Shown here piece after piece: positions 23,385 to 58,584 of a DNA stretch of 64,000 bases. The position numbers were made by a program, and so were the translations under genes. How positions within the stretch are numbered: position 1 is the first letter of the stretch; every line of letters starts with the position of its first letter. The notes beneath the pieces were generated by a model. The model ran no database searches. It saw nothing but the letters and a program-made list of their open reading frames with translations, and was not told the origin of the DNA. This DNA comes from Escherichia coli (GTDB taxonomy: Bacteria > Pseudomonadota > Gammaproteobacteria > Enterobacterales > Enterobacteriaceae). The stretch lies in the NCBI RefSeq assembly GCF_013122565.1, contig NZ_CP053258.1; one strand, written 5' to 3'.

Positions 23385-23411
23385 GTGGGTTTTTTGTTGC
23401 CTGAAATTTAT
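23385..23411. repeat. attL core direct repeat gtgggttttttgttgcctgaaatttat
   Basis: 26/27 identical to copy at 58558..58584. Confidence 0.75.
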
Positions 23412-23475
23412 GCCTTTTAAAATCATGATGTTAGAAGCACTGTTTTTTAACGATGGCGACAAAATGGCGGCAGCG

Positions 23476-23694
23476 TCAAAGAGAGAGCGCCACCTGTCCT
23501 GATTTCATTGGATGCGGCTGAACCGGATTTGACTCTTTTGGCGTTGCAATCGAACGAACAAAAGTTTCATGGGTAACAAAAGTATGGCTGCAGTTAATGT
23601 TCTGGCACTGGTTGTAACGCTCTTTGGTCAATGAAGATACCTGAAAACTGCTGCGAGTATGGGCGGCACTTCCACACAGTGGGCAAATCATCAT
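23476..23694 (-). CDS. ogr: Ogr-family zinc-finger late transcription activator
   Basis: MMICPLCGSAAHTRSS...CQNINCSHTF Cys4 pattern like P2 Ogr. Confidence 0.85.
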   Translation of the reverse strand: MMICPLCGSAAHTRSSFQVSSLTKERYNQCQNINCSHTFVTHETFVRSIATPKESNPVQPHPMKSGQVALSL

Positions 23695-23784
23695 TTTTCG
23701 AGTTCTCCCCATTTTTGCTAAATTCACAATAATGATACCGCATTATTCCATTTTGCAAACTTAAAAGTTCTCCATTGCGAAGAA

Positions 23785-24885
23785 TCATTCCATTTCGAAA
23801 TCATCAATCCTCACTTCGAGCTCCAGACTGGTTGTAAAACCGTTATCGGGGCTGACGGTATGCGTCAGAGTCGTAATGGTCCATTCCGCATCATCTATCG
23901 GCTGTTTAAAGCCACTGACCTTCACAGGCATTTCTGTGTAGAGATCTGCCCGCCCTTCCGCCAGTTGTAGCGAGAATGATGCAACGCCGCGTTGCAGGCG
24001 TTCCCACTGCATTTTCGCTGCCCGTTCAGCGTTGCTCCGGTTGGCATAAGTGCGATTAAGTACCAGCACGTTTTCATCCGTACCCACCAGGTAATCGCCC
24101 TGCTTCGCTTCCGGCTCTTTCTTCTGCTTTGCGGTCCTGCGCTTACGCTTCACCGTGGTGCTTTCTTTCTTCGCGGGTTCGCGGGTATGCAACCAACTGG
24201 CAATTACGCCCGTATAGGCTCCGCGATCTGCCAGGGTAAAGCGGTGACTGTCGCCGTCCTTGCGTGTGATAGTGATCACCGGCAGAGGTTTACCGCTGGC
24301 GCTTTTGCCCTGTCCCTGCCGGATGAATAACAGATTGCCATTTTTCACCGACGCAATAGCACCGTACTGGCGCGCCAGCCGCATCAGAAAACTGCCGTCA
24401 CTCTCATTGGTCTGGTCTATATGTTCCACGGGCTTATCCGACAGGTCTTTACCCAGTGCCATCTTCAGCTTGTGCCGCGCGGCTATTTCCTTCACCACTT
24501 CCCCGACAGTGGTCTTGTGCCACGATTTTTCACGGCGGGTATTCAGCGTTTCCCTAAAATCAGCACTTCGCGCCCGGATAGTCAGGCGATCCGGTGCGCC
24601 AGTGTGTTCAATCTCGTCCACCGTGAATGCCCCTTTCGGGAAAAGCGGCTGCCCCTTCCAGCCCAGCGCCAGCGTGATGACCGCACCACGGCGCGGCAGC
24701 ACGATTTTTCCGTCGGCGTCGTCCAGCTCCAGATCAAGCTGGTCTGCTTCAAAGCCCCGATTGTCCGTCAACGTCAGACTCATCAGGCGGTTATCCAGCA
24801 CAGTGGTGATATCCTTCCCCTCAATACTGATGCTGAATGCGGGAGTTTTGTTGCATTTGTTAAGCAGTTCAGAGCTGAAATTCAC
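23785..24885 (-). CDS. D: tail protein D (late control gene D)
   Basis: 366-aa ORF at P2 gene D position; remembered similarity. Confidence 0.8.
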   Translation of the reverse strand: MNFSSELLNKCNKTPAFSISIEGKDITTVLDNRLMSLTLTDNRGFEADQLDLELDDADGKIVLPRRGAVITLALGWKGQPLFPKGAFTVDEIEHTGAPDRLTIRARSADFRETLNTRREKSWHKTTVGEVVKEIAARHKLKMALGKDLSDKPVEHIDQTNESDGSFLMRLARQYGAIASVKNGNLLFIRQGQGKSASGKPLPVITITRKDGDSHRFTLADRGAYTGVIASWLHTREPAKKESTTVKRKRRTAKQKKEPEAKQGDYLVGTDENVLVLNRTYANRSNAERAAKMQWERLQRGVASFSLQLAEGRADLYTEMPVKVSGFKQPIDDAEWTITTLTHTVSPDNGFTTSLELEVRIDDFEME

Positions 24886-25367
24886 GACAGCAGCCCTCCC
24901 ACCGTTTTACTGATATCGCTTAAGGCAGACGTTGCCGTATCCTGCAAATTATTCAGTTGAGTACTGAGATCACCGAACATATCGGACAGGGATTCATCCA
25001 CCCGTTTGAGCGACAGGGTAAACTCAATCCGGCGCGGCATACCATCGCGGAAAAACTCCGTTTTAGTCTGATTCAGTCCCTCAATCACATACATGCCGTA
25101 AATCGTGCCGCTGCCTTCAATCAGGGGCCATGCTTTTCCCTGTTCTGCCATCTGCTCCAGAGCCAGCAACGACAGCCTGCCGCCCGTTATCTCCGGCATA
25201 AGAACACCAGAAAGCGTCAGCATGTCGTTGTCCGGTCCCAGAAACTGCGTGGACGGACGACGGTTTACCCGGCTGTTTGCCGCATGTCGCCAGCTGCGTT
25301 GATACTGCAGTTCCTGATACGGAACGGTGCGCAGCATAAACGCGTACAATCCCAGCACCATCATCAT
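24882..25367 (-). CDS. U: tail protein U
   Basis: 161-aa ORF at P2 gene U position. Confidence 0.8.
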   Translation of the reverse strand: MMMVLGLYAFMLRTVPYQELQYQRSWRHAANSRVNRRPSTQFLGPDNDMLTLSGVLMPEITGGRLSLLALEQMAEQGKAWPLIEGSGTIYGMYVIEGLNQTKTEFFRDGMPRRIEFTLSLKRVDESLSDMFGDLSTQLNNLQDTATSALSDISKTVGGLLS

Positions 25368-28300
25368 GCGTCGTATCCCCCCTGATCGCTGTAGTTACTC
25401 CTGGCTTTTGCCTTCAGCCTGCGTTCACGTTCATCAAGCTGGCGTGCCACCTCCCGCGCAATATCCTGCGCACTTTGTCCTGGCTGCGTCTGAATGATGA
25501 TCTGCGTCGGTGCCTCAATCCGGTGAACGGGCGGCACAGTGGCTGCACGACTCACCATCGCTTCGCCGCCTTTCGCGGGAAGTGCCAAAGGATGCAACGG
25601 TGGAAGTTCTGCAGGCGCGGCAGCAACGCCCATCATTCCGGCAACAACGGCAGCCAGTGCAGCTGTATTTCTCCGGCTGGTCACATTTGCCGGGCCGTTA
25701 ACAATTTCCGGCCCGTTTTCACCGACGATGCCAAACTGCCCGCGCGGGATATAGCCGCCGCTGTCATACATCCCCGCAAAGCCATATCCCCATGACGGAA
25801 AACCACCCGATGGCATCATCACTTTACCGTCTGCATTCACCGTCGCAGGTTGCTGACGCGTCACTCTTTCCGGCAGTTTCGCCTTTGCAGCCTCTTTACT
25901 GACAATGCCGAGTTTCTCCAGCAACCAGGAAACGCCGGATTTCAGGGAGTCCAGCGGATGCATGACCATATTCAGCCCTTCCGCCAGTGCCTCCCCGAAT
26001 CGTCGCCCCATTGCCGCTGCGCTCTGCAGTTCGGCAGAGGTCGACTTAACGGGCGTCAGCAGATCAGTAAACCAGCCCCACAACGCCTGCACTTTGTCGC
26101 CAATCCACTGAAACACAGGCTTAAGTGGTTCGAATGCTGCACTGATGGGACCTGCCGCCGCTTTGAATCCTTCCACCACACCAGCGAGAAATGCGGTGAT
26201 GGGTTGCCAGTATTTCCAGACAACCAGCGCCACGCCCGCCAGTGCAGTAACCACAAGACCTATCGGACTGAGCAGAGCACCTAACAGACCAGATATGGCA
26301 TACAGGGCAACGCGCAGCATCGCCAGCGGACCGGATGCCAGTACTCGCAGCACCGAGCCTGCGGCAGCCAGTCCACCGCGTAGTGCTGCCAGTGGATTCA
26401 TAAACATCACAGCAACAGCACGTAAACCGGATAATCCAGACCGCAACAGTGCAACCGGCACACCTGCTACAGTTTTCAGGACATTCCCCGTCAGTGATGC
26501 CGTGCGGCGCAAAGACGACAACGGCGCAGTAAGTAAACCCGCTGCGTTGCCCGATGAAGCAAGCCCGCGTCGCAGCAGTGCCAGTGGAGCGCCAGCTAAC
26601 CAGGACAACGCGCTGCTGGTTCGTGTTACTGCTGCCGTAACGGAAGATAACGTTTTGATACCCAGCACAGAGAATCCCAGACGGATGACTGCCAGCGGCC
26701 CCAGCACTGCAGCCAGCGCCACCGCTAAGGTGCCGAGGCCTACGGTAACCGCAGCCACAACAGCAGCTACTTTCATCAGTGTGCCTGTCAGTTCCGGGTT
26801 AGCTTCCACCCAGCGGCGCAACGCCCCCGTGATGCTTTTCACCGTGTACAGAATATCCATCAGCGGCTGGCGCAGCATTTCGCCCAGGCTGCTGAAGGTG
26901 TTCTGCGCTCCGGTTTTGACCAGCAACCACTGAGCGGAAAGTGAGTCCTTGTTAATGTCGGATTCTTTCTGCATGGAACCGAGCGCATCATTGCCCGCTG
27001 TCAGTTTTAGCTGGCGCTGCAGTTCCGGAAGGTTGTTTGCCAGTTTCGCCGCATCATCACCAAACTCTTTACCAAACAACATGGTCATGGCAGACAGACG
27101 CTTGTCCTGCGGCAGTGCGTTCACCTTCTCCAGCACACGCTGGATAGTTCCCATCGCATCCTTCGTCATCTGCTTTTCAATCACTTCAGGATTGAGTTTC
27201 AGCAGATTCATCCCTTCAAAGAAACTCTTGCTTTGCATGGTGGCAATGGACAATTCACGCACCATCGCGTTTGCTGCACTGGCTGCAACCTCCGGCGCAG
27301 CGCCCAGTGTCAGAAAGGTGGAACCCAGTGCCGCCGCTTTACGATAATCCAGACGGTCAGCCACACCGCCCAGACGTTGCATCACATCAATGATGTCCGC
27401 CCCTTTCGACATGGCGTTATCATCCAGATAGTTCAGCGCATCGCCGAGCTGTTCAATATTGCGGGTTGGTATTTTGTAGAGCTGGGCGATTTTCCCCAGA
27501 CTTTCTGACAGTTCATCCGCTGGCAGCTCAAAGGCTGTTGCCGCCTTTGCTGCCGTACTGGCGAAGGCCAGCAGGTCACGTTTCTGGTCTTCCCAGCTGT
27601 CGTCAGGGTTTGCGACGTTCATGCGCGCACCACCTTCAACCAGTGCAGCGAAGTCCACCGCACCGTTTTCCATCGGCAACTGTTCGCTGGCAGCCTTGAT
27701 GGCATCCTGCATTTCATAAAAACGTGCAGTGCGGTTGCCATTATCGTCACGCAGACCATTGACCTGCTTTGCCACACCTTTCATGGCATCTTCCATGCTG
27801 GTATAGCTTTTTACTGCCGCCATCACTGGCGCACCCATTGCCAGCCCTGCAGCCGTGGTAGTGGCTCCGGCTCCTGCGATGCGATCGCGCACTTCAAGCC
27901 GTCTTGAGTATTGTTCTCTGGCAGCGTTCATCCGTGCCTGTTGTTCACCCAGACGTTTAAGTGCTTTTTGCTGGCCCTCCAGTGCCTGCCTTGTTTCTTC
28001 AGCATTTTTCTTAAGTTCTCGCTGGGCACTACTGAGTTGTCTGGTATCAATCCCTGATTCTTTAAGTGCCTGACGTTGTCTCTGGACCGCCCCCAACAAG
28101 CCGTTATAGGTCTGCTGAAGTTCCTGTACTCGTGTTTTGGCCTGACTGAATAACTTTGCCTGCGCGGCGGTTGGCCTGTTAGTGGCAGCAAATTGTGTGG
28201 CGAGTTTTGCCGCCTCTTCGCGGGCTGCGTTCAGGTTGTTGGCTGTTATGGCTAGTTGCGAGCGCGTCTTGCGAAATTCATCAATTCTGCCAGCCTGCTT

Positions 28301-28441
28301 ATTCAGTTCTTTGAGGCTGTTTCGGGTATTCTGAATTGCGCCAGCCAGCTCTTTCGAACTGGCCTGTGCAGCACGGAATGGGCGGGTGAGTTTGTCAACC
28401 GCATTAAGAATGACCTGCAGGCGCAGGTTATTATCACTCAT
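25364..28441 (-). CDS. T: tail tape measure protein T
   Basis: 1025-aa Ala-rich, coiled-coil and repeat-rich ORF; position between E' and U. Confidence 0.85.
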   Translation of the reverse strand: MSDNNLRLQVILNAVDKLTRPFRAAQASSKELAGAIQNTRNSLKELNKQAGRIDEFRKTRSQLAITANNLNAAREEAAKLATQFAATNRPTAAQAKLFSQAKTRVQELQQTYNGLLGAVQRQRQALKESGIDTRQLSSAQRELKKNAEETRQALEGQQKALKRLGEQQARMNAAREQYSRRLEVRDRIAGAGATTTAAGLAMGAPVMAAVKSYTSMEDAMKGVAKQVNGLRDDNGNRTARFYEMQDAIKAASEQLPMENGAVDFAALVEGGARMNVANPDDSWEDQKRDLLAFASTAAKAATAFELPADELSESLGKIAQLYKIPTRNIEQLGDALNYLDDNAMSKGADIIDVMQRLGGVADRLDYRKAAALGSTFLTLGAAPEVAASAANAMVRELSIATMQSKSFFEGMNLLKLNPEVIEKQMTKDAMGTIQRVLEKVNALPQDKRLSAMTMLFGKEFGDDAAKLANNLPELQRQLKLTAGNDALGSMQKESDINKDSLSAQWLLVKTGAQNTFSSLGEMLRQPLMDILYTVKSITGALRRWVEANPELTGTLMKVAAVVAAVTVGLGTLAVALAAVLGPLAVIRLGFSVLGIKTLSSVTAAVTRTSSALSWLAGAPLALLRRGLASSGNAAGLLTAPLSSLRRTASLTGNVLKTVAGVPVALLRSGLSGLRAVAVMFMNPLAALRGGLAAAGSVLRVLASGPLAMLRVALYAISGLLGALLSPIGLVVTALAGVALVVWKYWQPITAFLAGVVEGFKAAAGPISAAFEPLKPVFQWIGDKVQALWGWFTDLLTPVKSTSAELQSAAAMGRRFGEALAEGLNMVMHPLDSLKSGVSWLLEKLGIVSKEAAKAKLPERVTRQQPATVNADGKVMMPSGGFPSWGYGFAGMYDSGGYIPRGQFGIVGENGPEIVNGPANVTSRRNTAALAAVVAGMMGVAAAPAELPPLHPLALPAKGGEAMVSRAATVPPVHRIEAPTQIIIQTQPGQSAQDIAREVARQLDERERRLKAKARSNYSDQGGYDA

Positions 28442-28870
28442 CGTTGGCCCCGCTTCTCTGAATCGCTTTATACCGCCATTCCAGCACTTCGGTCAGCGGC
28501 ATAACGTCAGTAACGGATGGCGGCCAATGAAAGATGGTGGCGATATCAGCCACCAGATCGTCAACCGTCAGGCTGTCGGTAAACCGGCAAGTACCGACTT
28601 CTTCAACAAAAAAGTGACAACCTCAACCGACATAGCGGTGAGATCTGCCGGGTCCATCTCTGCAATTTCCTGTGCAGTCAGTGCCGGGCTGGAGATGCGG
28701 GGGATCACGGTCATCATCGCGTTCACATCCATATCCATAATAGCCTGCAGGCGTGTACCGCGCAGTGCACCGGACTGCGGTTTACGCAGCACAATTTCGG
28801 TGATTTCCGTTTTACCGCGCTTGATAGGGGTATCCAGTTGAATAGTCTTTTCAGTCTGCTTATCGCTCAT
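28434..28870 (-). CDS. E+E': E+E' fusion product via programmed -1 ribosomal frameshift (predicted)
   Basis: Slippery heptamer T_TTT_TTG (minus strand 28613..28607) in E frame; -1 frame stays open about 57 codons to TGA overlapping T start (gATGAGTGA). Confidence 0.6.
28568..28870 (-). CDS. E: tail assembly chaperone E
   Basis: 100-aa ORF ending ..VVTFLLKKSVLAGLPTA; contains slippery TTTTTTG. Confidence 0.8.
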   Translation of the reverse strand: MSDKQTEKTIQLDTPIKRGKTEITEIVLRKPQSGALRGTRLQAIMDMDVNAMMTVIPRISSPALTAQEIAEMDPADLTAMSVEVVTFLLKKSVLAGLPTA

Positions 28871-28924
28871 TTTTCTGTCCTGTAAATTGGGTTCTGGCGC
28901 GGAATCCCGCGCTGCTCAGATACA

Positions 28925-29440
28925 TCAAAGGCCGAGGGCGTTGCGGTGCGCTTCCATCAGGTCCACGCCGTCCACAATTTCCACCATGTTGATAAGGTCC
29001 ACTTCATAGAGCACCTCACCATTGATAGTCAGCTTCGCGTAGCTGTTGGTACTGGTCACTTTGGTGGTGTTGCTTTCGCCCGTCTTCCACTCGCCGGAAT
29101 CCACTTCTTTGTGACGTCCACGCACCACAAGCTCCACGGCCTGCACTTCTCCGGTATCGTCACGCTGGATAGAGCCGGTAAAGCGCAACTGGATGCCATC
29201 CACCGTGGCTTTGCCCATCTGCTTAAACAGCAGCAGTTCAGTACCACCAATGGAAAATTCTGTGTCCAGCGCACTGTCATCAAGCCCCAGATCCACATCA
29301 ACTGCACCAGGCATTCCGCCGCCGCGATACTTCTCATATTTGCGGGTGAATTTCGGCAGCGTCAGCGACTCTACGATCCCCTGCCAGTTGTTCCCGTCGT
29401 TAAACAGGTTCAGATGTTTTAATTTGCGTGGTAAAGCCAT
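28925..29440 (-). CDS. FII: tail tube protein FII
   Basis: 171-aa ORF at P2 FII position. Confidence 0.85.
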   Translation of the reverse strand: MALPRKLKHLNLFNDGNNWQGIVESLTLPKFTRKYEKYRGGGMPGAVDVDLGLDDSALDTEFSIGGTELLLFKQMGKATVDGIQLRFTGSIQRDDTGEVQAVELVVRGRHKEVDSGEWKTGESNTTKVTSTNSYAKLTINGEVLYEVDLINMVEIVDGVDLMEAHRNALGL

Positions 29441-29449
29441 GTTATCCCC

Positions 29450-30622
29450 TTACGCGCTGACCTGGCTGGCGAAATTCACCAGGTACTGATCGGTGATGCG
29501 CTGGCGCAGCATCAGATTTTCAAGTGGTGGCACTGGCGTGTAGTCATAGTCGATGGTGAGTTTTCCGGCTTTCAGCGTGTCTTTGTCGTTCACTGACTCG
29601 TCCAGCCAGCAATCACCACCAATGAGATAGCCCTGACTGACCAGGCTGCGCATTTTGGCGCGGATGCCCTCGATAATGTCGCGCGCCAGCGACGGGTTCA
29701 GCGGTTTGTCCACCGCCCACATGTGCGCTTCTGCCATTGTGTCCGTCAGCACCTGCGCCGTGCGGGTGTAGTTTTCGAAGGCAAAAAGCGGATCATCGCT
29801 CAGACAGCGGGAACCCCAGAAGCGGAAACCATCCTTGCGCACAAGCGTGGTGACGTCGTTCTGGTTAAGCAGTCCCGCATCGGTTGCCGGGTCCTGCAGA
29901 TCCCAGAACACATCAGCAGAAATTCCGGTGACACCGTTCACGCCCACGTTGGACAGGCTTTTGTGCCACCCGGTCTGCTCATCAATTTTGGCGCGCAGAC
30001 CGAGCGCACGAGCGGTGGCATATGCCGTTGCTTCGGCATTCAGCACCGTGTCCCAGCCAGTAAAGTCAGGCCAGATCAGCATCCCTTCGCGCTGGCTGAA
30101 GTTTTCGCGGTAAGTGATCGCCTCCTGCACTGTCTTGCAGCCATACGCTGACAGGTAAGCAAACCCACGCAGGCTTTGCGCCACTCTCAGCAACTCAGTC
30201 GCAACGGCTTTGTTATCGTGGCCTGGCACGCCGAGAATGCGCGGTTTAACGCCGAGCTGTAACTGGGCAGATAACAGAGCTTTCATGCCTGTTTTTTTAC
30301 CTTCAGCAGTCACTGCGCCGATGATATTGGTCGTGGTTTCTTCTTCCGTTTCCCCCTGCGGCACACGCACAACAACGGTCACGGGTTTTGCCTGGTCAGC
30401 GATGGCATCCAGCGAACGGGCCAGCGTGCCGGACTCACCCGCTTTACCGCTGGCAGTCAGCACATCAGTGATCAGCACGGGTTTATTAAGAGGAAACATT
30501 TTTGCATCGGCATCATCGCCCGTGCAGACCATACCCACGATGGCGGTGCTCACCGTGGTAATGGATCGGGTGCCTTCGTTGACTTCAACAACGCGCACTC
30601 CGTGGTGGTAATCCTGAGCCAT
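29450..30622 (-). CDS. FI: tail sheath protein FI
   Basis: 390-aa ORF at P2 FI position. Confidence 0.85.
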
Positions 30623-30764: not shown

Positions 30765-31336
30765 TCAGGGCGATTCATTGTTCTCATTCGCCAGAAATTT
30801 TCTATAAATGGTAGAAACGCCCACATCAAAAATCAGTGCAATACGCTGTCTTGATTCTCCGGCCTCGAGTAAACGTCCAATCTGTGCCCACTGTTCGGTA
30901 GTCAACTTAGGACGGCGTCCACCTACTCTGCCTTTAGCACGAGCTGCAGCCAGCCCTTCCCTGGTACGTTCAACTATCAGTTCGCGTTCCATTTCAGCCA
31001 GGGCACCCATGACATGAAAAAAGAAACGGCCCATTGGGGTACTGGTATCAATACTGTCAGTCAGACTTCTGAAATTCACGCCGCGCTGGCGCAACTCTTC
31101 TATCAGAGTAACAAGATGCGCATACTGCGCCCCAACCTGTCCAGCTTCCAGACAACCAGTGTGTCACCTGCCGATAGTGTCCTGAGCAGCTTTTTCAGCC
31201 CTGGTCTGTCGGACTTGGTGCCACTGATTTTATCCTCAAAAATCCGCTCACATCCCGCGCAGTTCAGTGCATTACGTTGCAAATCGGTGTTCTGGTCATT
31301 TGTTGACACGCGTACATAGCCAATAAGCATGATCAT
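30765..31336 (-). pseudogene. Hin/Gin/Pin-family serine DNA invertase, disrupted by frameshift
   Basis: N-terminal 77-aa ORF (MIMLIGYVRVSTNDQ.. catalytic Ser) ends at in-frame TGA; C-terminal 109 aa continue in another frame; about 1-nt indel near 31117. Confidence 0.7.
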
Positions 31337-31387
31337 CCCTCTGAATAAAAACCGGAGATGATGCCAGTTAGCCGTAATCTCTGCATT

Positions 31388-31412
31388 TTCATAAACGTTG
31401 GTTTGGGAGAAG
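31388..31412. repeat. invertase crossover site (gix/cix-like), right copy
   Basis: ttcataaacgttggtttgggagaag; 15-bp perfect inverted repeat of the site at 33216..33240. Confidence 0.65.
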
Positions 31413-31756
31413 CGGCGAAAAGGGATGTGGGCACAGGAGATAATCAGATACCGGATATGGGAGCATTCGCTTCTGGTTCGGGATGGTTCAGGCTACCAGG
31501 TGGATATATTGTTCAGTTTGGCACTTTTTCAGGAAACACGACCCGCTTTATCAGTGGACACTTCCCTATACCATTCCCTAATCAGCCGATGGTTTCAGTC
31601 AGTGTTATGTCTGATGCCGTTCAGTCAGACCCGTCGATTCCTGCCCCGCAGGTTTTGTCTGTAAATTTTGAACATATCAGTAATTCAGCGTGGCGTGTGG
31701 CAACCAGTGATATCTCACAGCAATACAGATTCAGTTATATTTCGATAGGACGGTAG
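31413..31756 (+). CDS. alternative tail-fibre C-terminal variable segment (silent in this orientation)
   Basis: Plus-strand frame shares ..GLGE.. junction with H at the crossover site; no independent start. Confidence 0.5.
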
Positions 31757-31758
31757 AA

Positions 31759-32199
31759 ATGCAGAAATATATTTTCAGTGCCGATAAAAATGCGTTTTTC
31801 CCTGTGGAGCTTAAAATCGCTTATCAGGAATCCGGCGAATGGCCCGATGATGGAATCGAAATTGACGACACTGTTGCCGCCGAATTTATGAAGGAAGCAC
31901 CAGAAGGAAAATACAGAGGTGTCATCGACGGAATGCCTGCATGGATTGATATTCCACCGCCAACTCATGAGGAACAAATTGCCGCAGCCGAATTGGAAAA
32001 GCAGCAATTGATTAATCAGGTCAACGAATACATAAACAGTAAGCAATGGCCTGGTAAAGCGGCGATTGGTCGCCTGAAAGGTGAGGAACTGGCGCAATAT
32101 AATTTGTGGCTGGATTATCTGGACACACTGGAACTGGTCGATACTTCCGGTGCGCCAGATATTGAATGGCCTACGCCTCCGGCAGTTCAGGCCAGATGA
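31759..32199 (+). CDS. tail fibre assembly protein (alternative, Tfa')
   Basis: 146-aa ORF with conserved Tfa C-terminal pattern (..WPTPP..). Confidence 0.7.
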   Translation: MQKYIFSADKNAFFPVELKIAYQESGEWPDDGIEIDDTVAAEFMKEAPEGKYRGVIDGMPAWIDIPPPTHEEQIAAAELEKQQLINQVNEYINSKQWPGKAAIGRLKGEELAQYNLWLDYLDTLELVDTSGAPDIEWPTPPAVQAR

Positions 32200-32764
32200 C
32201 ATCCGGCGCAGTGCTGGTATCTGTTACCGTCACCGCGTCAATATAATCCAGCACGGCGTTAAGTCGGGTTGTTTCTGCCTGCGTCAGCTTCCGCCCGGCC
32301 TGTAATTTCAGTTGAATCAGACTGATGGAAGCCATTGCAGCATCGATCAGCGACTGGCGCTGTGCTTCTGCCGCGTCTACTGCGGCACTATGCTGTGCCT
32401 CAGTATCTGTCACCCATTTCTCACCATCCCATTTATCGTATGGCGTTAACGGTGAAAGCGTGACATAACCGTCTTTGATGGCACCGATATAATCCACTGT
32501 AACAGCTGCGCCATTTTCTGTTGAGTAAACAGTCTCATTGCGATGGTCTTCTTCATGGCTCCATCCCTTACCCGTAAATACTGCCACTCTTCCCGGAATG
32601 TATTCGCCCGGGTCAATACCAGTGGAACAGGCGGGCATACTTACGCCAGTATTAATATATTCATCAGACCAGCCAGTATATTCATACGTAACTGCCTCAT
32701 AATAAAAACAACGCATATTACCAGGTACTGTAGCCAGCCCATTTTCATCAAAAACAGGTTTCAT
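32171..32764 (-). CDS. G: tail fibre assembly protein G
   Basis: 197-aa ORF directly downstream of H; Tfa-like C-terminus (..VIWPELPEA). Confidence 0.75.
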   Translation of the reverse strand: MKPVFDENGLATVPGNMRCFYYEAVTYEYTGWSDEYINTGVSMPACSTGIDPGEYIPGRVAVFTGKGWSHEEDHRNETVYSTENGAAVTVDYIGAIKDGYVTLSPLTPYDKWDGEKWVTDTEAQHSAAVDAAEAQRQSLIDAAMASISLIQLKLQAGRKLTQAETTRLNAVLDYIDAVTVTDTSTAPDVIWPELPEA

Positions 32765-42271: not shown

Positions 42272-42287
42272 CGGGTTTTGTGCTCCA

Positions 42288-48037: not shown

Positions 48038-48105
48038 CATAAATGAAACTACCATTTCAACGTCTTCATTTCCAGTAATATATTTCAAATATCTACACTG
48101 AGCGC

Positions 48106-48124: not shown

Positions 48125-48158
48125 GCCTGCCCGCTTTATGTAGTGGTTTTCATGCAGG

Positions 48159-49529: not shown

Positions 49530-49545
49530 CTGTTTATATTTACAG
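49530..49545. promoter_or_regulatory. LexA box (CTGT-N8-ACAG)
   Basis: ctgtttatatttacag 43 bp upstream of the 62-aa ORF start; adjacent half-site tactgtatatat. Confidence 0.7.
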
Positions 49546-49639: not shown

Positions 49640-52054
49640 TTAATACAGGTTCCGCCACTTATCATCTTCCTGCAAACGCTGGTTCCGATAGAAGATACGC
49701 AGGCCTGCTCCTGACGGAATACTGCCGCCGCGAAGGAGTAAATCGACCTCTTTCTCGCTGCCATCAAATCCTCTGGACTTCAGTTCATAGACGAGCTGCT
49801 GTCGCTGATGGTCTGTAATTCGCTGTTTGTAGTCTTTACGCCGTTTCGGTTTCACCAGGCGTAACCTTGCAGCCAGTTCCCGGCGCTCTTTTTTGCTCAT
49901 ACTGTGCAGGTATTCGTGCAACTCCTTGTCATCCATGCGGGTAATGTCCGTTCTGGTATCCCCATCAGCTGATTTGTCTTTCCCTTGTTGGTTCAAATTT
50001 TCAGCAAGGGGACAGTTATTGCCACGAGTCCAAGGGGCGCAAGCGCCCTGGTCGGCTACCGCCTCCTGAACGTCAACGGCTTTACGAACCATTTTCCACT
50101 TCACTGCATGAGTGCAGATCTTGCCCTCTGCAATGGGTGACCAGATGCCATAAATACGAATGCCGTGATCGCCATAGGCGGTCGGCTCTTCGTTAATTTC
50201 ATAAGCAGTTCTGATGAGGTGATATTTGCGGGGAACCAGTACGCCGCCCTGCTTCATGATGTAAGTGGCAAAACAACCAGCATCAGCAGCAGCCAGGATT
50301 GCATCAAGGCGCGGGTTATCCAGTACCGGCGCACCTGCTTTTTTGTCCCCCTGTTGCCTTGCCGCCTGACCAGCCAACAATCGCAGTTCACGGTAAGCCT
50401 GACGCCCCGGAATGCCAAAGAAGCGGAATTGCTGAACACGATGCAAAGACGCCCAGGCATTCACGTATTCAGCGTTATCACGCAGAGATTTACCCGTTTC
50501 CTTGCTGATCTCGCCAGCCAGACCACGCCCGTCAATGTTCTTACTGATGTATTTCGCGATGTAGCTTGTTGGCGTACCTTTGCGCGGGTTTATCAGCTCA
50601 GACTTAAAGCGTGGTCCCGTGTTATTACCCAGCTCCTCGCGGTCTTCACGAATGGCAAACTTACGCAACAAAGCAGTAATGGCTCGGCGATCTTTTTTGC
50701 GCATAAAACACAACAGGTGCCAGTGCACTGTACCGTCATGATGCGGCTCAGCCACCCGCACGCCATACCAGCGCAATCCGGCTTTGTGCATCGCTTTACG
50801 AAATGCAGCAAACATGCCGACCAGATAATCACTGCTTTGTCTTACCGTCGCGTTTGTCCAGGTCGGGTTTGGTCTGCCGTTATTTAGCGTGGAATGGAAA
50901 CGTGACGGACAGGTGATGGTGTAGAAAACGGCGCAGTCACCGCGCATTTCCGCGATAAGCTCCAGACCTTTAACACAGGCCATCATCTCATTGCGGCGAT
51001 GCGCAGGGTTGCTGCTGCTGGCGTTTACCACGTCTTCCATATCCAGCGTGTCGCCGTCTTCGTTCACCAGTTCATGAGAACGAAAAAACTCCAGCGACTT
51101 ACGGCGCTGCTCACGTTTATGCATCACGGCTTCATAGCTGACATAGGGAGATGCTTTTTTGCTGACCAGGCAGACAGCGCGCAACTGCTCTTCCCGCCAT
51201 TCGCAACGCATCTTCCATAATTTCCGATACCACCAGTCGGCGCACAACATACGCGCCAGCGAACCCGGAATGAGTTCATAGGGCACGGGTTTACGGCGGT
51301 TTCTTTTCCGGCGGAGTTGCTCAAACGCAGGTGGGATGACATCCAGTCGCAGGGTTTCTGCTGCCACCCTTTCCCATGTCTTGCGGATTTCTTCTGGCTT
51401 AACGTCATCGGTGGCATACAAATCGCCACAAGCTGCATCAAGGCACATGCTCATATGCGCAGCTACCAGGGTGGACAGGCGTTTCACCTGATCCTGACTC
51501 ATTTCAGGCAGGATCAGCAGGCCGTCCAGCCCTTCCTGGCTCGCCATAAAGCGAAAAGCAGTGGATAGCTGACTGTCGCGTACATGCTCCAGCCGTTCCA
51601 GACATGGCTTAATCGTCTCACGCAAATAGCGGGAATAAGCCTTTGGCCTGCCCAGGCTGCTGAAGTATTCAATACGTTGCATCAGCGGCTTGCTGATATG
51701 GGAAGGCTGGGCGTTAACGTCCGCCAGAATGACCATGTCTGGATTAAAACGCTGCTGCTCATGCGCCAGCTTTGCCCGGCTAATGAGCTTATCCTGCTCT
51801 ATTTCGCGTTGGACAGGATCACGGGATTCATTAAAGAAATAACGCTCCCAGACCTGATCACTCAGAGCCTCGCGGCGCAGTTGTTCCTGCTCGTTATCGG
51901 CAGCGTACAGAGTGATCAGGTTTGAAAGCGCAGAAACCGGCGCAACTTCCGCCGGGTCCAGATAAGGGTTAATGGCCTTTTTCGGGCTGTTCCATGAGAA
52001 TGCTGCGGCGACCTCGTTAAAGCCGCTGCAGTTGTTCATATCATCATGGCTCAT
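49640..52054 (-). CDS. A: replication initiation protein A (rolling-circle nickase)
   Basis: 804-aa ORF at P2/186 gene A position. Confidence 0.85.
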
Positions 52055-52908
52055 GCACGCACTCCGTACATGGCAGAACTATCCACGCCACGCGAAGGAT
52101 CAAATCCCACCCAGCAGCGCGCCCCGGAAACAGCAATGATTTCTGTTGCAGATTTACTCTCGCCAGCCGACACGCCGATGCTGCGTTTTGCCTTGATGTA
52201 GTGGTGAGTGAAATTGCGATACAGCGAACGAATCAGGGATGTGTCACTGTTAGAAACAATGACCGGATGTCCTTCAGATGCTCGATGTTCAAGAACGGAT
52301 GCCAGGTGATACTGGTCATCTTCAGTGAAACCATCAGTGTGATAGCCGGAAAACGTACCGTCATACGGCGGATCGCAATACACCACATCCCCCGCCTTCA
52401 ACATCGCCAGCGTTTCATCAAAGCTGGCGCAGATAAACGTTGCCCGCTGGGCTTTTTCTGCAAATGCGCGAATTTCTTTTTCAGGGAAATACGGATTTTT
52501 ATAATTACCGTAGGGAATGTTGAAATGCCCGCTCTTGTTATAGCGACATAAACCACGGTAACCGTGACGATTGAGATACAGGAAATATACCGCTTTCATG
52601 AAATCAGTAATTTCAGTGGAGTAATTAAACTCCTGCCTTATGTTGTAATAAGCCACCTCCCTGTTTGCGATCTCAAATAAAACTCTGGCGCGAGATATAA
52701 ACGATTCACAATCAGCGGCAACCTTTTTATAGAGGTTGATTAAATCAAGATTAATATCCGCAACCAGATAGCTTGGATAATCCGTCTCCATCATCACAGC
52801 ACAGGAACCCGCGAAAGGTTCAACCAGTCGCGGGCCAGCAGGAAGGTGTTTTTTCAGTTCGGACATAATTGCGGTTTTATTTCCCGCCCATTTCAGGATG
52901 GTGCTCAT
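52051..52908 (-). CDS. DNA adenine methyltransferase (Dam-like, phage-encoded)
   Basis: [11 protein letters not shown]..., DPPY catalytic motif, [16 protein letters not shown]; resembles E. coli Dam. Confidence 0.85.
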
Positions 52909-53132
52909 ACAGCACCTCCGTTGTAATGTTTGCCTTTCAGCTCTGCGATTTCCTGACAGGTAATGCAAAGCTGCACTCCCGGAATGGCGCGGCGTCGTGC
53001 TGGCGGAATTGGCGCTTCACATTCAATGCAAAGTACGCGTGACACGCCCGGTGATTTGGCACGGGCTGCACGGATATGGCGCTGGCGTTCTTCTTCAACG
53101 CGCTGCTGTACGAGATCCATTGCATCAGCCAT
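52905..53132 (-). CDS. TraR/DksA-family C4 zinc-finger protein
   Basis: 75-aa ORF with CIECEAPI...CITCQ. Confidence 0.7.
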   Translation of the reverse strand: MADAMDLVQQRVEEERQRHIRAARAKSPGVSRVLCIECEAPIPPARRRAIPGVQLCITCQEIAELKGKHYNGGAV

Positions 53133-53371
53133 TAGTGGATCTCCTGCGCTTCGTTCTGGATTGCTTCAGCAGTGACACGCAGCAGTTCTGCCGCTTCGAC
53201 GTGGTTTAGCTGGCGGGATGTGATATGACACGCCAGGCTATCAAGGCGAGCTGCCATTGCTTCAGCCCTTGCCCGGCGCTCTTCCAGACGAGCCTCTGTC
53301 AGTAAAATATTAAGCCCTGCGTCATCCGGTCCGGTTTTAGTCGTGAGGGTTTCAATATTACGCATAATCAA
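53132..53371 (-). CDS. hypothetical phage early protein
   Basis: 79-aa ORF in early operon. Confidence 0.5.
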   Translation of the reverse strand: MIMRNIETLTTKTGPDDAGLNILLTEARLEERRARAEAMAARLDSLACHITSRQLNHVEAAELLRVTAEAIQNEAQEIH

Positions 53372-53432
53372 TTCTCCTGAATTTAGATAAAGGAATGCCC
53401 GGCGGGTTTACGCCATGAATTTCATTAGTTGG

Positions 53433-53774
53433 TTAATTCGGCATGGTTAGCCGTCTGGGAAATAAGCTCACCACTGCACGAAAATGATTCATTGCTTTAA
53501 TCAGCTCCCGCTTTTCGTCAGTGGTCAGCTCATTAATGCTGATGCTATGACGTTCAGCTGGAATTTTTGCCATAAAGAATATAGCAGCTAGTGCCCGTTT
53601 ATTTTGTTCATTATTGATATCCCGTGGATCACGCATATCTTTAATAAACCGCTCAAGCTCTGACTCAATATTCAGGCCAAAAACTTTCGCCCTTAATTCC
53701 GCTATGTGATTAAGTCCATTCAGGCGTTCACCGGGGCTTAATGGAACAGTCGCCGCAGCGCCATTAATTGCCAT
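53433..53774 (-). CDS. hypothetical phage early protein
   Basis: 113-aa ORF in early operon. Confidence 0.5.
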   Translation of the reverse strand: MAINGAAATVPLSPGERLNGLNHIAELRAKVFGLNIESELERFIKDMRDPRDINNEQNKRALAAIFFMAKIPAERHSISINELTTDEKRELIKAMNHFRAVVSLFPRRLTMPN

Positions 53775-53796
53775 AATTCATATCCCCAAAACGCAA

Positions 53797-54021
53797 CTAT
53801 CGTTCTTTGTTCTTACGGTAACGTTCAAGAGGAGATACATTTTTTCGTATCGTCTCTTTAACCTGCTCTCCCCGTAAAAACGTCCCATCCTTTAACGCGA
53901 AAAAGTAACTGCCATCGCCCGACAATGACGGATAGCAACAGAGCAAATCATCTTCAGGTACTGAATAACTCTCCCCTCTGTAACGAAACTGATAAACCAC
54001 TTCACTTTCTGCCGCATACAT
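53797..54021 (-). CDS. hypothetical phage early protein
   Basis: 74-aa ORF. Confidence 0.45.
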   Translation of the reverse strand: MYAAESEVVYQFRYRGESYSVPEDDLLCCYPSLSGDGSYFFALKDGTFLRGEQVKETIRKNVSPLERYRKNKER

Positions 54022-54188
54022 TTGGACTTTCTCCGTTTCCTCATGGTCAATTCAGACAGCAATTCATCTTGTGAATGACATGGATGCCAGCGTTTTCCAT
54101 CCTCACCCGTGATCCAGCCGTGACCGTAGTGCATTGCCGGGCTTTGTTTTACCAGCAGCGATGCAAATGATGGTTCTTTCGTCAGCAT
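53892..54188 (-). CDS. hypothetical protein (overlaps previous ORF in another frame; uncertain)
   Basis: 98-aa ORF with GAGGTG RBS. Confidence 0.3.
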   Translation of the reverse strand: MLTKEPSFASLLVKQSPAMHYGHGWITGEDGKRWHPCHSQDELLSELTMRKRRKSKCMRQKVKWFISFVTEGRVIQYLKMICSVAIRHCRAMAVTFSR

Positions 54189-54195
54189 AAGCACC

Positions 54196-54705
54196 TCACA
54201 GCAAACCGAATGAAGCACCGAGGCCAGTCACGGTATCAACTGCACTCGCCATCGCAGGGTTAGCCTGTAAACGGGCCTGCAATGAAACAGCAGCCAACGC
54301 CATCAGTCGTGTTACAGAGTTAATGCTGCTGATAGCATCACGACGACCTGCACTGGTTTTTACATCGCCAGATACCGCACCTGCAGCAACACGCCCGATC
54401 TCTGCGGTTGCACTCATGACGTAATGTGGCAGTTTCTCTTTTGCCACCTCATTAATCGGTACGCATGGCAGGCAGTGAATCTGAGCCAGAAAACCATCTA
54501 CCAGCGTTGAATCTTCAGTCAGATCGGTAAGCAGCCAGATTTCTGGTGCGGTTAATAAATGAGGTTGAGCCGGGTTCAGCTTGTTCCGCAGAATCTGCAC
54601 ATTCATGCCAGCACGTTCTGCCAGTTGCACCAGGTTGTGGCGCAGCGCGAATGCACGACAGGCTTCATCAAAATGTGGATGTTTGGAAACTTGGTAATCA
54701 AACAT
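54196..54705 (-). CDS. B: replication protein B-like
   Basis: [25 protein letters not shown]... at gene B position. Confidence 0.7.
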
Positions 54706-54737
54706 GGTCGACACCTCTGATGTATCCCAAAATGGAA

Positions 54738-54959
54738 CTAGTTGAATACAACATTGCAATCAGTAAGTGCATCAACGGTAAGAGCAGCAAGGTTGATCAT
54801 TACTTTTTCTCTTTTCTTGTCTTTACGAAGACGATGCCGAGGAATGCGACCATCCGCCAACATATCGTTGATTGTGTCGATTGAAAGACCAGTAAGTTCG
54901 CTATAACGCTCGATTGTGACGTGTGGCGTATTCAGAGTTATTGAAATGTTAGGGGTCAT
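54738..54959 (-). CDS. Apl/Cox-like excisionase and transcriptional regulator
   Basis: 73-aa ORF, first gene of lytic operon, divergent from cI. Confidence 0.6.
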
Positions 54960-55054: not shown

Positions 55055-55651
55055 ATGTCAACATCAAAGTACCCAAGTGAGATCAAAATAAATCCCAATA
55101 AAGGTGGTAAGGCTGCGATTGAGCGATTAGTCGAAGCCTATGGCTTTACGACACGACAGGCTTTAGCTGATCACTTGGAAGTATCAAAAAGCACACTAGC
55201 GAACAGGTATTTGCGGGATACATTTCCTGCTGACTGGATAATCCAATGTGCTCTTGAAACAGGAACCTCCCTCAAATGGTTAACTACCGGACAAGGCCTT
55301 AAGCAAAGCTCGCTGACAGCAGCTACAGAAGAGCTTGTTAAGTTTCGCCTTGCCGCAGGCAAAATGATTGAAGACGGTTCATATGTCTTCGATTCATCAT
55401 TTCTTCCTGCAAACCTTTCATCACCAATTGTTATTCAGGATGGACTCGTCACATACATTTGTGATCAAAAATTTTCTGAAGTACTTGATGGAAACTGGTT
55501 AATCAATATCGACGGAACCTATTCCATTCGAAAAATCACAAGGCTTCCTAAAGGAATGATTAAAATTACAACAGCAGAGAATAGCTTTGAATGTGCATTT
55601 TCTGATATTGAAGTGGTTGCTTGTATAAGAAGTACAATAGTCTCGAATTAA
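55055..55651 (+). CDS. cI: CI-type immunity repressor (186-like)
   Basis: 198-aa ORF, HTH N-terminal region; divergent from lytic operon. Confidence 0.75.
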   Translation: MSTSKYPSEIKINPNKGGKAAIERLVEAYGFTTRQALADHLEVSKSTLANRYLRDTFPADWIIQCALETGTSLKWLTTGQGLKQSSLTAATEELVKFRLAAGKMIEDGSYVFDSSFLPANLSSPIVIQDGLVTYICDQKFSEVLDGNWLINIDGTYSIRKITRLPKGMIKITTAENSFECAFSDIEVVACIRSTIVSN

Positions 55652-55671: not shown

Positions 55672-57348
55672 ATGAATTCATTTGCCATCGTTATACTCTT
55701 ATTAGCATTTCTCGCCCCTGTTCTAGCTGTAATATTATTTAAACAAAGTAAAAAACACAAAGCGGCTATAGATAACCTGACAGCTAACAACATAGCCCTT
55801 TCTAACCAACTGATTGAAAATCAAGAAAAACTAGCACAGACCGTACGAGAATTATCAGATCTTGAAGGGCGAGCAGCACCATTGTGGCAATACGAAGAAT
55901 TGCACAGCGCAGTAATGGATGCAGAGAATAAGATAAAAAATGCGGACTCAATAGCCAAGCAAAAAATAGATGAAGCCCAAATTAAGGCGGCTAAAACAGT
56001 AAACGAAGCAAATTATCAAGCTCAGATAACAATAAGCAACGCTAATAGCGAAGCTATAGCAATCACCAAAGACGCTCGCGATGCACGCCTGAAAGCCAAA
56101 GAACGTCTTGATAATGCTAATAATAAAGCAAATGAGCTAATCTCAAATGCTAATGACAATGCAGTAAAAATTATTTCTGATGCAGAAGAAAGAGCAAAGG
56201 AGATTGCTGGTTCAGCATATGAAGCTAAAGAGTTTGCAGAAAAATATGAAGCAGTTGCAAAATCAATGAAAAATAAAATTGAAGGTTATGGTGATGAATG
56301 GATCATCCCTAACCGTAGTGTACTTGATGAGCTGGCAGAAAATTATGAATTTACAGATGCAGGCAAGGAATTACAAAAAGCCAGAGAGTTAACCAAATCA
56401 TTAATAAAAACTAATAAAGCTGCTTCGTGTGATTATGTTGAGCAAAACAGGCGTAATACTGCCATAAACTTTGTTTTGGATGCCTTCAATGGAAGAGTTG
56501 ACAGTATTTTATCAAAAGTCAAACACAACAATTTTGGAAAACTTTCCCAAGAAATAAAAGATGCATTTCAACTAGTAAATTACAATGGCTCTGCCTTTAG
56601 GTCCGCAAAAATAAGTGACATCTATCTTCAGGCAAGACTCAACGAGCTAAAATGGGGTGTAGCAGTTAATGAAATTATGCTCGAAGAAAAAGAAGAGCAA
56701 AGAAGGATTAAAGAACAGCTTCGTGAAGAGGAAAGAGCTCGTAGAGAATATGAAAAAGCGATAAAAGAAGCTGAAAAAGAAGAAAAAGCTATTCAGCAAG
56801 CTATAAATAAAGCAACGAAAGAACTTATGCTTGCAAATGAAGAACAACGCTTAGCTTTAGAGCAAAAAATAGCTGAACTACAGTTAAAATATGAAGAAGC
56901 TGAAGCTAAAAATCAACGAGCTATTTCTATGGCTCAACAAACCAGATCAGGCCACGTCTATATCATTAGTAATATTGGTTCATTTGGCGAAGATGTATAT
57001 AAAATTGGAATGACACGCCGCCTTGAACCACTTGATCGTGTTCGTGAACTCGGAGATGCTAGTGTTCCTTTTTCGTTCGATGTTCATGCGATGATTTATA
57101 GTGATGATGCACCATCATTAGAAAACCATCTGCATAAAGTTTTCAACGAAAAGCAGGTCAATAAAATTAACTCACGAAAAGAGTTTTTTAACGTAAATTT
57201 AAAAGAAATCAAATCAGTTATTGAAGACATGAACATCAACGCCCACTGGACAATGTTTGCAGAGGCGAAAGAATATAGAGAGTCTCTAGCTATTGAGCAG
57301 GAGCGCAAAGCAGCCACTTCCGCCAACGATGAACTACATGTTGCTTAG
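55672..57348 (+). CDS. membrane-anchored coiled-coil protein with C-terminal T5orf172/GIY-YIG-like domain
   Basis: 558-aa ORF; N-terminal TM; long coiled-coil repeats; C-terminal GHVYIISN...YKIGMTRR...RVRELG; about 37% GC; between cI and int. Confidence 0.65.
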   Translation: MNSFAIVILLLAFLAPVLAVILFKQSKKHKAAIDNLTANNIALSNQLIENQEKLAQTVRELSDLEGRAAPLWQYEELHSAVMDAENKIKNADSIAKQKIDEAQIKAAKTVNEANYQAQITISNANSEAIAITKDARDARLKAKERLDNANNKANELISNANDNAVKIISDAEERAKEIAGSAYEAKEFAEKYEAVAKSMKNKIEGYGDEWIIPNRSVLDELAENYEFTDAGKELQKARELTKSLIKTNKAASCDYVEQNRRNTAINFVLDAFNGRVDSILSKVKHNNFGKLSQEIKDAFQLVNYNGSAFRSAKISDIYLQARLNELKWGVAVNEIMLEEKEEQRRIKEQLREEERARREYEKAIKEAEKEEKAIQQAINKATKELMLANEEQRLALEQKIAELQLKYEEAEAKNQRAISMAQQTRSGHVYIISNIGSFGEDVYKIGMTRRLEPLDRVRELGDASVPFSFDVHAMIYSDDAPSLENHLHKVFNEKQVNKINSRKEFFNVNLKEIKSVIEDMNINAHWTMFAEAKEYRESLAIEQERKAATSANDELHVA

Positions 57349-57430
57349 CAATGTATGTTTCATAGTAATCACACATTGATTACTGGTTACATATACAGTT
57401 AAATTTAGCCCTCTGATATGAGGGCTTTTT

Positions 57431-58486
57431 ATGGCAGTACGAAAACTAACCACAGGGAAATGGCTTTGCGAATGTTACCCCGCCGGACGTAGCGGACGCC
57501 GTGTGCGTAAACAATTCGCCACCAAAGGCGAAGCACTGGCCTTCGAGCGATACACCATGGGGGAAATAGAAGCAAAGCCCTGGCTGGGCGAATCAGTGGA
57601 TCGTCGGACACTGAAAGATATGGTTGAGCTATGGTTCAAATTACATGGCAAATCTCTTACTGCCGGACAGCATGTCTACAACAAGCTGCTGTTGATGGTT
57701 GACGCCTTGGGAAATCCCCTTGCAACTGATCTCACCTCAAAAATGTTTGCTCACTATCGCGATAAACGCCTTACTGGTGAAATCTACTTCAGTGAAAAAT
57801 GGAAGAAAGGAGCAAGCCCAGTTACTGTTAACCTGGAGCAAAGCCATCTAAGCAGCGTTTTCAGAGAACTTTCCCGCCTGGGTGAATGGACACTTCCAAA
57901 CCCATTAGAGAAGATGCGCAAATTCACTATCGCAGAAAAGGAAATGGCATGGCTTACACATGAGCAGATTATCGAATTACTGTCTGACTGCAAACGTCAG
58001 AACCCAATTCTGGCACTGGTGGTAAAAATATGTCTAAGTACAGGCGCACGTTGGCGAGAAGCAATCAATCTTACCCGCTCACAGGTCACCAAGTACCGAA
58101 TCACCTTTGTGAGAACGAAGGGGAAGAAAAACAGAAGCATCCCTATCAGTAAAGAGCTTTATGAAGAGATCATGGCGCTCGATGGGTTCAATTTCTTCAC
58201 AGACTGCTATTTTCAATTTTTATCCGTGATGGAAAAAACGTCTATCGTTCTCCCTCGCGGTCAACTGACACACGTTCTGCGCCATACGTTTGCGGCGCAC
58301 TTCATGATGTCGGGTGGAAACATCTTGGCCTTACAAAAAATTCTCGGACACCACGATATAAAAATGACTATGCGTTATGCGCATCTGGCACCGGATCATT
58401 TGGAAACGGCGCTCCGTTTCAATCCACTGGCAACGTTACCAAATGGCGACAAAGTGGCGGCAGCGGTTGGCATTACCCCGCAATAA
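57431..58486 (+). CDS. int: tyrosine integrase (P2/186 family)
   Basis: 351-aa ORF with R..HxxR..Y catalytic pattern (TGARWREA...LRHTFAAHF...MRYAH). Confidence 0.85.
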   Translation: MAVRKLTTGKWLCECYPAGRSGRRVRKQFATKGEALAFERYTMGEIEAKPWLGESVDRRTLKDMVELWFKLHGKSLTAGQHVYNKLLLMVDALGNPLATDLTSKMFAHYRDKRLTGEIYFSEKWKKGASPVTVNLEQSHLSSVFRELSRLGEWTLPNPLEKMRKFTIAEKEMAWLTHEQIIELLSDCKRQNPILALVVKICLSTGARWREAINLTRSQVTKYRITFVRTKGKKNRSIPISKELYEEIMALDGFNFFTDCYFQFLSVMEKTSIVLPRGQLTHVLRHTFAAHFMMSGGNILALQKILGHHDIKMTMRYAHLAPDHLETALRFNPLATLPNGDKVAAAVGITPQ

Positions 58487-58557
58487 CCACCACTGACCAC
58501 CACATTAAGTTATTGTTTTTTATCTAACTTATTGTTTTTATTAACCCATTTAGATAA

Positions 58558-58584
58558 GTGGGTTTTTTGTTGCCTAAAATTTAT
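58558..58584. repeat. attR core direct repeat gtgggttttttgttgcctaaaatttat
   Basis: 26/27 identical to attL copy; 3 bp from rcdA stop. Confidence 0.75.

Follow-up and report, generated by a model that had tools for sequence, protein, structure and literature searches.

The window analysed here, a 64,000-nucleotide stretch of the Escherichia coli contig NZ_CP053258.1, contains a 35.2-kb element between the genes ybjL and rcdA. The element is delimited by 27-bp direct repeats at 23385–23411 and 58558–58584, which follow the sequence GTGGGTTTTTTGTTGCCT(G/A)AAATTTAT, are identical at 26 of 27 positions (the sole mismatch being G at 23403 versus A at 58576) and start 35,173 bp apart; by our own estimate, the chance expectation for such a pair in 37 kb is about 3e-6. 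The repeats, and the distance of 3 bp between the right one and the rcdA stop codon (the rcdA reading frame ends at 58588), are as claimed in an earlier reading of this DNA made without database searches (below, the sequence-only reading). Between them lie late genes in the P2 order, a lysis-lysogeny switch of the 186 type and the gene of a tyrosine integrase. The element is very probably a temperate myovirus prophage of the Peduoviridae (Elveevirus/Felsduovirus-like), integrated by this enzyme at the 3' end of rybB, a small RNA (sRNA) gene.

The two repeats are the attL and attR cores. A 392-nt query formed by the left flank, one copy of the core and the right flank has a 100% match in E. coli NZ_CP033635, and this empty site is uninterrupted in 4227 of the 5426 complete E. 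coli genomes; of the remainder, the majority, BL21 included, contain one half of it only. The sequence-only reading had named the lack of an uninterrupted attB in other strains as evidence against itself, and the site is thus found in abundance. The attP reconstructed by joining the inner arms is collinear with the int–attP–ogr junction of Klebsiella phage KP12. Since the empty site is present in other genomes and attP matches that of KP12, the repeat boundaries are real att sites. The single mismatch allows no placement of the crossover point within the 27-bp core: both variants occur among hosts and phages, and hence it is compatible with either side.

The rybB gene of the host occupies 23320–23398 on the plus strand (Rfam RF00110, full length 1–79, 104.1 bits at a gathering score of 40). 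The last 14 nt of rybB, made up of the U-tract and the 3' half of its terminator stem, form the left part of the att core, and 13 nt downstream of the gene complete it. Hence the insertion targets an sRNA gene, at its 3' end, rather than plain intergenic DNA. The sequence-only reading, which described a convergent ybjL/rcdA intergenic site, was right about the location between these two genes, but rybB was overlooked. Because the core duplicates this whole stretch, rybB remains intact at attL. At attR, a phage-supplied terminator-like hairpin of the P arm (58543–58564, plus strand), re-using GTGGGTTTTTT of the core, rather than the rybB terminator, adjoins the rcdA stop codon at 3 bp. The native 3' flank of rcdA has indeed been replaced, the P arm of the phage standing in its place. 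The site is a well-documented phage insertion hotspot: the rybB non-coding RNA was published as the insertion site of the P2-like prophages Rybb*W, Rybb*B and Rybb*Cr, of which Rybb*B carries retron Ec86 (PMC3032704), and it corresponds to the defence hotspot #29 (PMC10121019).

The two halves of the prophage resemble different sequenced phages. Over 85–90% of its length, the late half (23385–46100) has 95.7–96.4% identity with the Klebsiella phages Kp48xx and with Cartapus, an Escherichia phage of the Peduoviridae (Elveevirus), while the early half shows 95–97% identity to vB_EcoM-813R9, KP12 and 4LV2017. With the classified relatives, the nucleotide identity is 95–97% across 75–90% of each half, which is not a formal whole-genome threshold for a genus. 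In the vB_EcoM-813R9 record, rcdA, ybjJ and ybjI directly follow int, and hence this phage shares the insertion site.

Genes were matched by tblastn with the proteins of Cartapus, 813R9, 186 and P2. All reference proteins of Cartapus and 813R9 were matched at full length in one frame, with the exception of the DNA invertase, and all 42 curated open reading frames (ORFs) begin with a start codon and run without an internal stop. The late genes are collinear with the P2 order, Q-P / O-N-M-L-X-lysis-R-S / V-W-J-I-H-G / FI-FII-E-T-U-D / ogr, and the structural proteins are 42–69% identical to those of both P2 and 186. Thus the claim of an essentially intact, att-bounded P2/186-family prophage between ybjL and rcdA is borne out by the repeats, the empty site and the open genes, with one amendment, the frameshift in the tail-fibre DNA invertase. 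The claim of a full P2-order gene set, in turn, is true of ogr, the tail, lysis, capsid, terminase and portal genes, A, CI and int, all of which are open, but not of B, as tblastn with P2 B yielded no match.

Starting from attL, the first gene is that of a 72-aa zinc-finger late activator of the ogr / 186 B type (23476–23694, minus strand; NF007241, E=2e-28), 54–55% identical to 186 B and P2 Ogr. It is followed on the same strand by the tail operon with D, U, T (the tape measure), E/E', FII and FI (23785–30622), whose products are matched by Cartapus at full length with 98–100% identity. Further minus-strand genes, identified by protein matches to reference phages, encode the tail fibre assembly protein (G), the tail fibre H and the baseplate proteins I, J, W and V (32171–36702). 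The next minus-strand block (37690–43121) comprises S, R, LysB, the endolysin, the holin, X, L, M (small terminase), N (capsid) and O (scaffold), which are 86–100% identical to Cartapus at full length. The large terminase P and the portal protein Q, again with matches to reference phages, are encoded on the plus strand (43264–46064). The cohesive-end site cos, GGCGTGGCGGGGATACGAG, spans 19 nt at 48109–48127 on the minus strand; together with its flanks it is identical to the annotated cos of Cartapus, and it matches the 186 cos at 15 of 19 positions. The early operon (49640–54188, minus strand) was delineated by matches to reference phages and phrogs and contains A (the replication nickase), a Dam methylase, a TraR/DksA zinc-finger protein, a DUF2732 protein, ORFs of 113 and 74 aa, and Fil. 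The integrase, 351 aa, is encoded at 57431–58486 on the plus strand.

The switch region has a 186-like arrangement, with the CI gene on the plus strand divergent from the genes of CII and Apl/Cox on the minus strand. The 186-type CI repressor (55055–55651, 198 aa) is 32% identical to 186 CI over 170 aa (E=2e-34). The opposite pair (54196–54959) encodes CII, 169 aa, 69% identical to 186 CII, and a 73-aa excisionase-repressor similar to Apl/Cox (phrog_575). Fil is 58% identical to 186 Fil and the integrase about 54–55% identical to 186 Int. No homologues of P2 C, Cox or B were found. The 186-like traits noticed earlier, in particular the CI-type repressor, are thus well confirmed.

The SOS module lies just downstream of gene A. 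The window has a single perfect CTGT-N8-ACAG, the LexA box CTGTTTATATTTACAG (TACTGTAAATATAAACAGTG on the minus strand) at 49530–49545, in the predicted tum promoter. The box is situated upstream of two minus-strand ORFs, one of 62 aa (49299–49487) and the other of 77 aa (49055–49288). The latter is DinI-like: it is 41% identical to residues 71–145 of 186 Tum and covers positions 71–148 of phrog_189. The 146-aa fused Tum of 186 is not present here as a single polypeptide. We considered the 62-aa ORF as the cut-off N-terminus of 186 Tum and dropped this option, as BLASTP produced no alignment between the two. Split tum genes are known from Fels-2 and PSP3, the upstream gene being the antirepressor, and in PSP3 in particular the antirepressor is encoded by the upstream half (PMC3121763). 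The HS prophage of E. coli occupies the same site as the present one and has an identical LexA box and a tum gene whose product is identical at 61 of 62 positions (98%). In HS, an in-frame deletion of tum and the lexA(Ind-) allele each abolish induction by mitomycin C (PMC11195241), and the primers used for this deletion fall on the start codon and on the stop codon of the 62-aa ORF. The homologies point to the 62-aa gene, the upstream half of a split tum, as the predicted antirepressor, and not to the DinI-like gene. The sequence-only reading had proposed an antirepressor route through a LexA-controlled DinI/Tum-like gene; the LexA box and the SOS module stand, but the role of antirepressor passes to the upstream 62-aa gene, since the DinI-like protein corresponds to Tum residues 71–145 only. 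SOS induction via an antirepressor, as predicted by homology, is well supported.

Taken together, these features suggest the following life cycle. In the lysogen, CI would silence the early operon, and, by analogy with 186, cI, the SNIPE/PD-lambda-1 defence gene described below and int would be carried on one leftward lysogenic transcript. Upon DNA damage, LexA would leave the box at 49530–49545, allowing production of the 62-aa Tum antirepressor and the DinI-like protein, and Tum would inactivate CI. Apl, Int and IHF would then excise the genome, A would replicate it, Ogr would switch on the late operons, and the terminase would cleave at cos (48109–48127), with virions as the expected product.

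Other explanations of the same locus have to be weighed. The repeats might have arisen by chance or by a host-derived duplication, the true ends of the element being elsewhere. We give this practically no weight, as it is already refuted by the empty-site and attP results: thousands of genomes show the empty site with its junction precisely at the repeats, a known attP results when the inner arms are joined, and the primers that rebuild attB in the E. coli HS deletion (PMC11195241) use the same junctions, mapping to 23367–23410 and 58558–58603; nothing was found in its favour. Another possibility is a cryptic, domesticated prophage that looks complete but yields no infectious particles and has been retained for its defence cargo. 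One gene, that of the invertase, is frameshifted, three probable defence or moron genes could favour retention, and the relative Cartapus makes few virions, no indicator host having been found for it. On the other hand, the invertase is dispensable, the essential genes are all open and 86–100% identical to those of sequenced, packaged phages, and no damage is seen in cos, the att and arm sites or the LexA box, so that we consider a cryptic state decidedly unlikely.

An intact prophage that is not SOS-inducible, as in P2, with the LexA-controlled operon serving only to modulate the SOS response of the host by way of the DinI-like protein, is also unlikely. It would agree with the lack of the Tum N-terminal half in the DinI-like protein, with the lack of detectable similarity between the 62-aa protein and the N-terminus of 186 Tum, and with the difference between CI and the HS repressor. 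However, the repressor is of the 186 type rather than the P2 C type, the HS 62-aa gene, 98% identical and preceded by an identical LexA box, is needed for mitomycin C induction, and the upstream half of the split tum in PSP3 is an antirepressor. Hence an intact prophage induced by the SOS response remains the preferred reading, and several points weigh against it. The frameshifted invertase means some decay or a sequencing error, though irrelevant to viability. Integrity was judged from open frames, and inactivating in-frame point mutations may have gone unnoticed. For Cartapus, structurally the closest relative, sequencing and quantitative PCR of culture supernatants revealed virion DNA, but the spontaneous titres were low and no indicator host was found (PMC9928086). 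Finally, CI is 55% identical to HS CI, the N-terminal domain being far more conserved, and because of this divergence we only infer that the HS Tum result can be transferred.

The annotated arm-type consensus of 186 Int, YAYCGCCAYTY, occurs in 186 as tandem pairs with 11-bp spacing on both sides of attP. In the orientation of the window it reads RARTGGCGRYR, and two tandem pairs are seen, one per arm. The P' arm contains CGATGGCGACA and AAATGGCGGCA (23451–23472, plus strand), also spaced by 11 bp and conserved in the KP12 attP, and the P arm contains AAATGGCGACA and AAGTGGCGGCA (58441–58462, plus strand), which match the consensus; the distance between the latter pair and the core is 96 bp, the same as in 186. 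Both pairs are kept in KP12. These tandem pairs are likely candidates for the integrase arm sites.

The sequence-only reading had tentatively assigned this role to the TTATTGTTTTT motifs next to attR. The motif occurs exactly twice, at 58510–58520 and 58529–58539, both copies being on the P arm, with the tandem pair on one side and the core on the other; the IHF and Apl sites of 186 are found in this interval. Read from the other strand, the motif is AAACAATAA(C/G)TTA and agrees with the IHF consensus WATCAANNNNTTR at 8 of its 9 specified positions. We rejected TTATTGTTTTT as an arm site, as it is confined to a single arm and resembles an IHF site, whereas RARTGGCGRYR is present on both arms. 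Given the restriction to the P arm, the 186-like position and the 8/9 match, the repeats may be interpreted as putative IHF-type bending sites.

Another short repeat, ACCACCAC, is found twice in a 10-bp phase at 58487–58505, directly after the int stop codon, and one inverted copy is situated in the apl–cI switch region (54982). These repeats are possible Apl/Cox sites. An attempt to define Apl sites by a motif common to the P arm and the switch was abandoned: CACCAC(A), which occurs twice in the P arm in a 10-bp phase and once in the switch, is all that they share, and this is too weak.

The prophage carries several cargo genes. The retron is flanked by the portal gene and cos, a position described by Dodd and Egan (1996), as that work is cited in PMC6868368. 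Its 586-aa reverse transcriptase (RT) is an RT-Toprim fusion of the Ec67 family (Eco2, type I-C), encoded at 46109–47869 on the minus strand; it is recognized by the PADLOC RT-Toprim_I-C model (E=6e-213) and by NF038237 (686 bits, cutoff 450 bits), and its translation features the YADD motif and a C-terminal Toprim domain. The msr-msd non-coding RNA, at about 47908–48038 on the same strand, has a 13-bp a1/a2 stem and the priming G in the CAGA context (GGCAGA), a context noted for Ec67 (PMC6868368). No Rfam family scored above the gathering threshold for this RNA, and we derived its structure by folding and by comparing it with the Ec67-family retron locus of E. coli FHI_NMBU_11. The RT is 71% identical to the FHI_NMBU_11 protein, annotated in RefSeq as a retron Ec67 family RT; the msr is nearly unchanged between the two loci, the msd differs at several positions, and the homology stops exactly at cos. 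Among the 5426 complete E. coli genomes, none matches the exact retron allele over 80% or more of the query; in NCBI, the exact RT protein occurs on 119 contigs. Judging by these comparisons, the retron is a divergent variant of the Ec67 family and not Ec67 itself, with predicted production of multicopy single-stranded DNA (msDNA) and predicted anti-phage activity. In Eco2, degradation of msDNA by the phage nuclease DenB uncages the Toprim nuclease, which leads to tRNA cutting (PMC12916289). On the opposite side of cos, the plus-strand gene at 48470–48895 encodes a 141-aa protein with a signal peptide, matching phrog_7437; such genes are common in prophages of the Enterobacteriaceae.

The gene between cI and int (55672–57348, plus strand) encodes SNIPE, also known as PD-lambda-1, a membrane-anchored nuclease with a DUF4041 domain. 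The PADLOC PD-Lambda-1 model matches residues 116–550 (E=3e-120), the RefSeq name being 'SNIPE associated domain-containing protein' / DUF4041, and a hydrophobic N-terminus is visible in the translation, followed by DUF4041 and a C-terminal nuclease domain. SNIPE cuts incoming phage DNA (bioRxiv 10.1101/2025.11.03.685801). Here its gene is presumably co-transcribed with the lysogenic operon. The cI–SNIPE–int–attR–rcdA block is common to 164 complete E. coli genomes.

One more moron, at the position of P2 orf30 with S (tail completion) and V (baseplate) as its neighbours, is encoded on the plus strand (36796–37701). Its 301-aa product belongs to phrog_4373 and has a HEPN-like C-terminal domain with an invariant R-x4-H; no match was found in PADLOC 2.0, NCBIfam or Pfam. 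It is conceivable, though rather doubtful, that this is a new single-gene anti-phage RNase acting by abortive infection. If so, the prophage would carry three defence systems, and the rybB-type P2-like phages would have a third cargo hotspot. This gene is the only loose end of the locus with any novelty.

The frameshifted invertase gene, of the Gin/Cin type (30765–31336, minus strand), is a pseudogene in this sequence, as seen from two tblastn frames and the alignment with Cartapus: a 1-nt deletion near 31119 splits it into 30765–31094 and 31103–31336. The nearest copies in complete genomes are one base longer across the same 701-nt span and are listed as recombinase family protein, and hence the lesion is either a mutation private to this sequence, locking the fibre orientation, or a sequencing error. 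The adjacent invertible tail-fibre segment of 1.86 kb (31386–33242), the one served by this invertase, is flanked by 27-nt inverted repeats at 31386–31412 and 33216–33242; it holds the C-terminus of H and tfa on the minus strand, and an alternative fibre tip with its own tfa on the plus strand. The invertase is dispensable for particle formation and viability.

The closest described elements are the rybB P2-like prophages, that is, the Rybb* prophages of W, B and Crooks, those of hotspot #29, the HS 'P2' and vB_EcoM-813R9. They have the same att site, gene order, split-tum module and cargo slots as the present prophage, but a different combination of cargo. Thus, Rybb*B carries retron Ec86 instead of one from the Ec67 family, and the HS prophage, whose CI is the 55% identical one, has neither a gene annotated as retron RT in the corresponding stretch nor SNIPE between cI and int; the frameshifted invertase is a feature of the present copy. 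Similar cargo is known from the 186-related prophage carrying retron Ec67, reportedly described by Hsu et al. in 1990. That prophage resembles the one considered here in the retron lying between cos and the end of the portal gene, with a 586-aa RT-Toprim and the CAGA context, in the 285-aa Dam methylase of the early operon, and in the size of about 34–35 kb with flanking direct repeats of about 26–27 bp.

Coliphage 186 (Eganvirus) shares with this prophage CI, CII, Fil and Int homologues (32–69% identity), an excisionase of the Apl/Cox type, tandem arm-type sites, a LexA-controlled operon after gene A and the late gene order. The differences are the split of tum, with an N-terminal half unrelated in sequence, the att site (rybB here, tRNA-Ile in 186), the presence here of Dam, other lysis genes and an invertible tail fibre, and the lack of orf97, dhr and the PAPS-reductase-like genes of 186. 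The likeness to phage P2 (Peduovirus) comprises the late gene order, structural proteins with 42–67% identity, cos adjoining the portal/terminase region, and the moron slots at orf30 and beside cos. However, for P2 C, Cox, B, old, tin and fun(Z) we found no counterpart in this prophage, and the integrases are 35% identical; P2 is not SOS-inducible. At the nucleotide level, Cartapus is 95–96% identical over the late region, and 4LV2017 and KP12 are 95–96% identical over the early region. The 62-aa Tum is identical or nearly so in Cartapus and 4LV2017 (Elveevirus) and in Fels-2 and SopEPhi (Felsduovirus). The cargo of Cartapus is different (RES, an exonuclease and DUF4145), and it sits elsewhere on the chromosome of LF82 (2.74–2.77 Mb).

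The element, its att site, the retron position and the SOS switch are therefore already known, and the prophage is of an ordinary kind. It is a clean example of a P2/186-like phage whose attB is the 3' end of rybB, an sRNA gene that survives the insertion, and of defence genes residing in fixed cargo slots, with little importance beyond annotation. In practice, the gain is in the correct boundaries (23385–58584) and in the assignment of the predicted antirepressor gene (49299–49487), useful for curing or inducing the prophage; the divergent Ec67-family retron may be of interest for retron engineers.

Several features of the host flank are worth mentioning. A 3.5-kb segment between artJ and rlmC (8226–11735), missing from NZ_CP033635, encodes a 493-aa sulfatase and the EIIB and EIIC components of a phosphotransferase system; this is a host accessory region without relation to the prophage. 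The minus-strand region 1177–2959 has a low GC content (0.33) and contains two adjoining ORFs of 366 and 239 aa; the counterpart in a related genome is a pentapeptide-repeat gene with the annotation 'incomplete'. Finally, an Rfam match to naRNA4, the nucleoid-associated RNA derived from repetitive extragenic palindromic elements, is situated between artM and artJ (7229–7309, minus strand, 71.9 bits).

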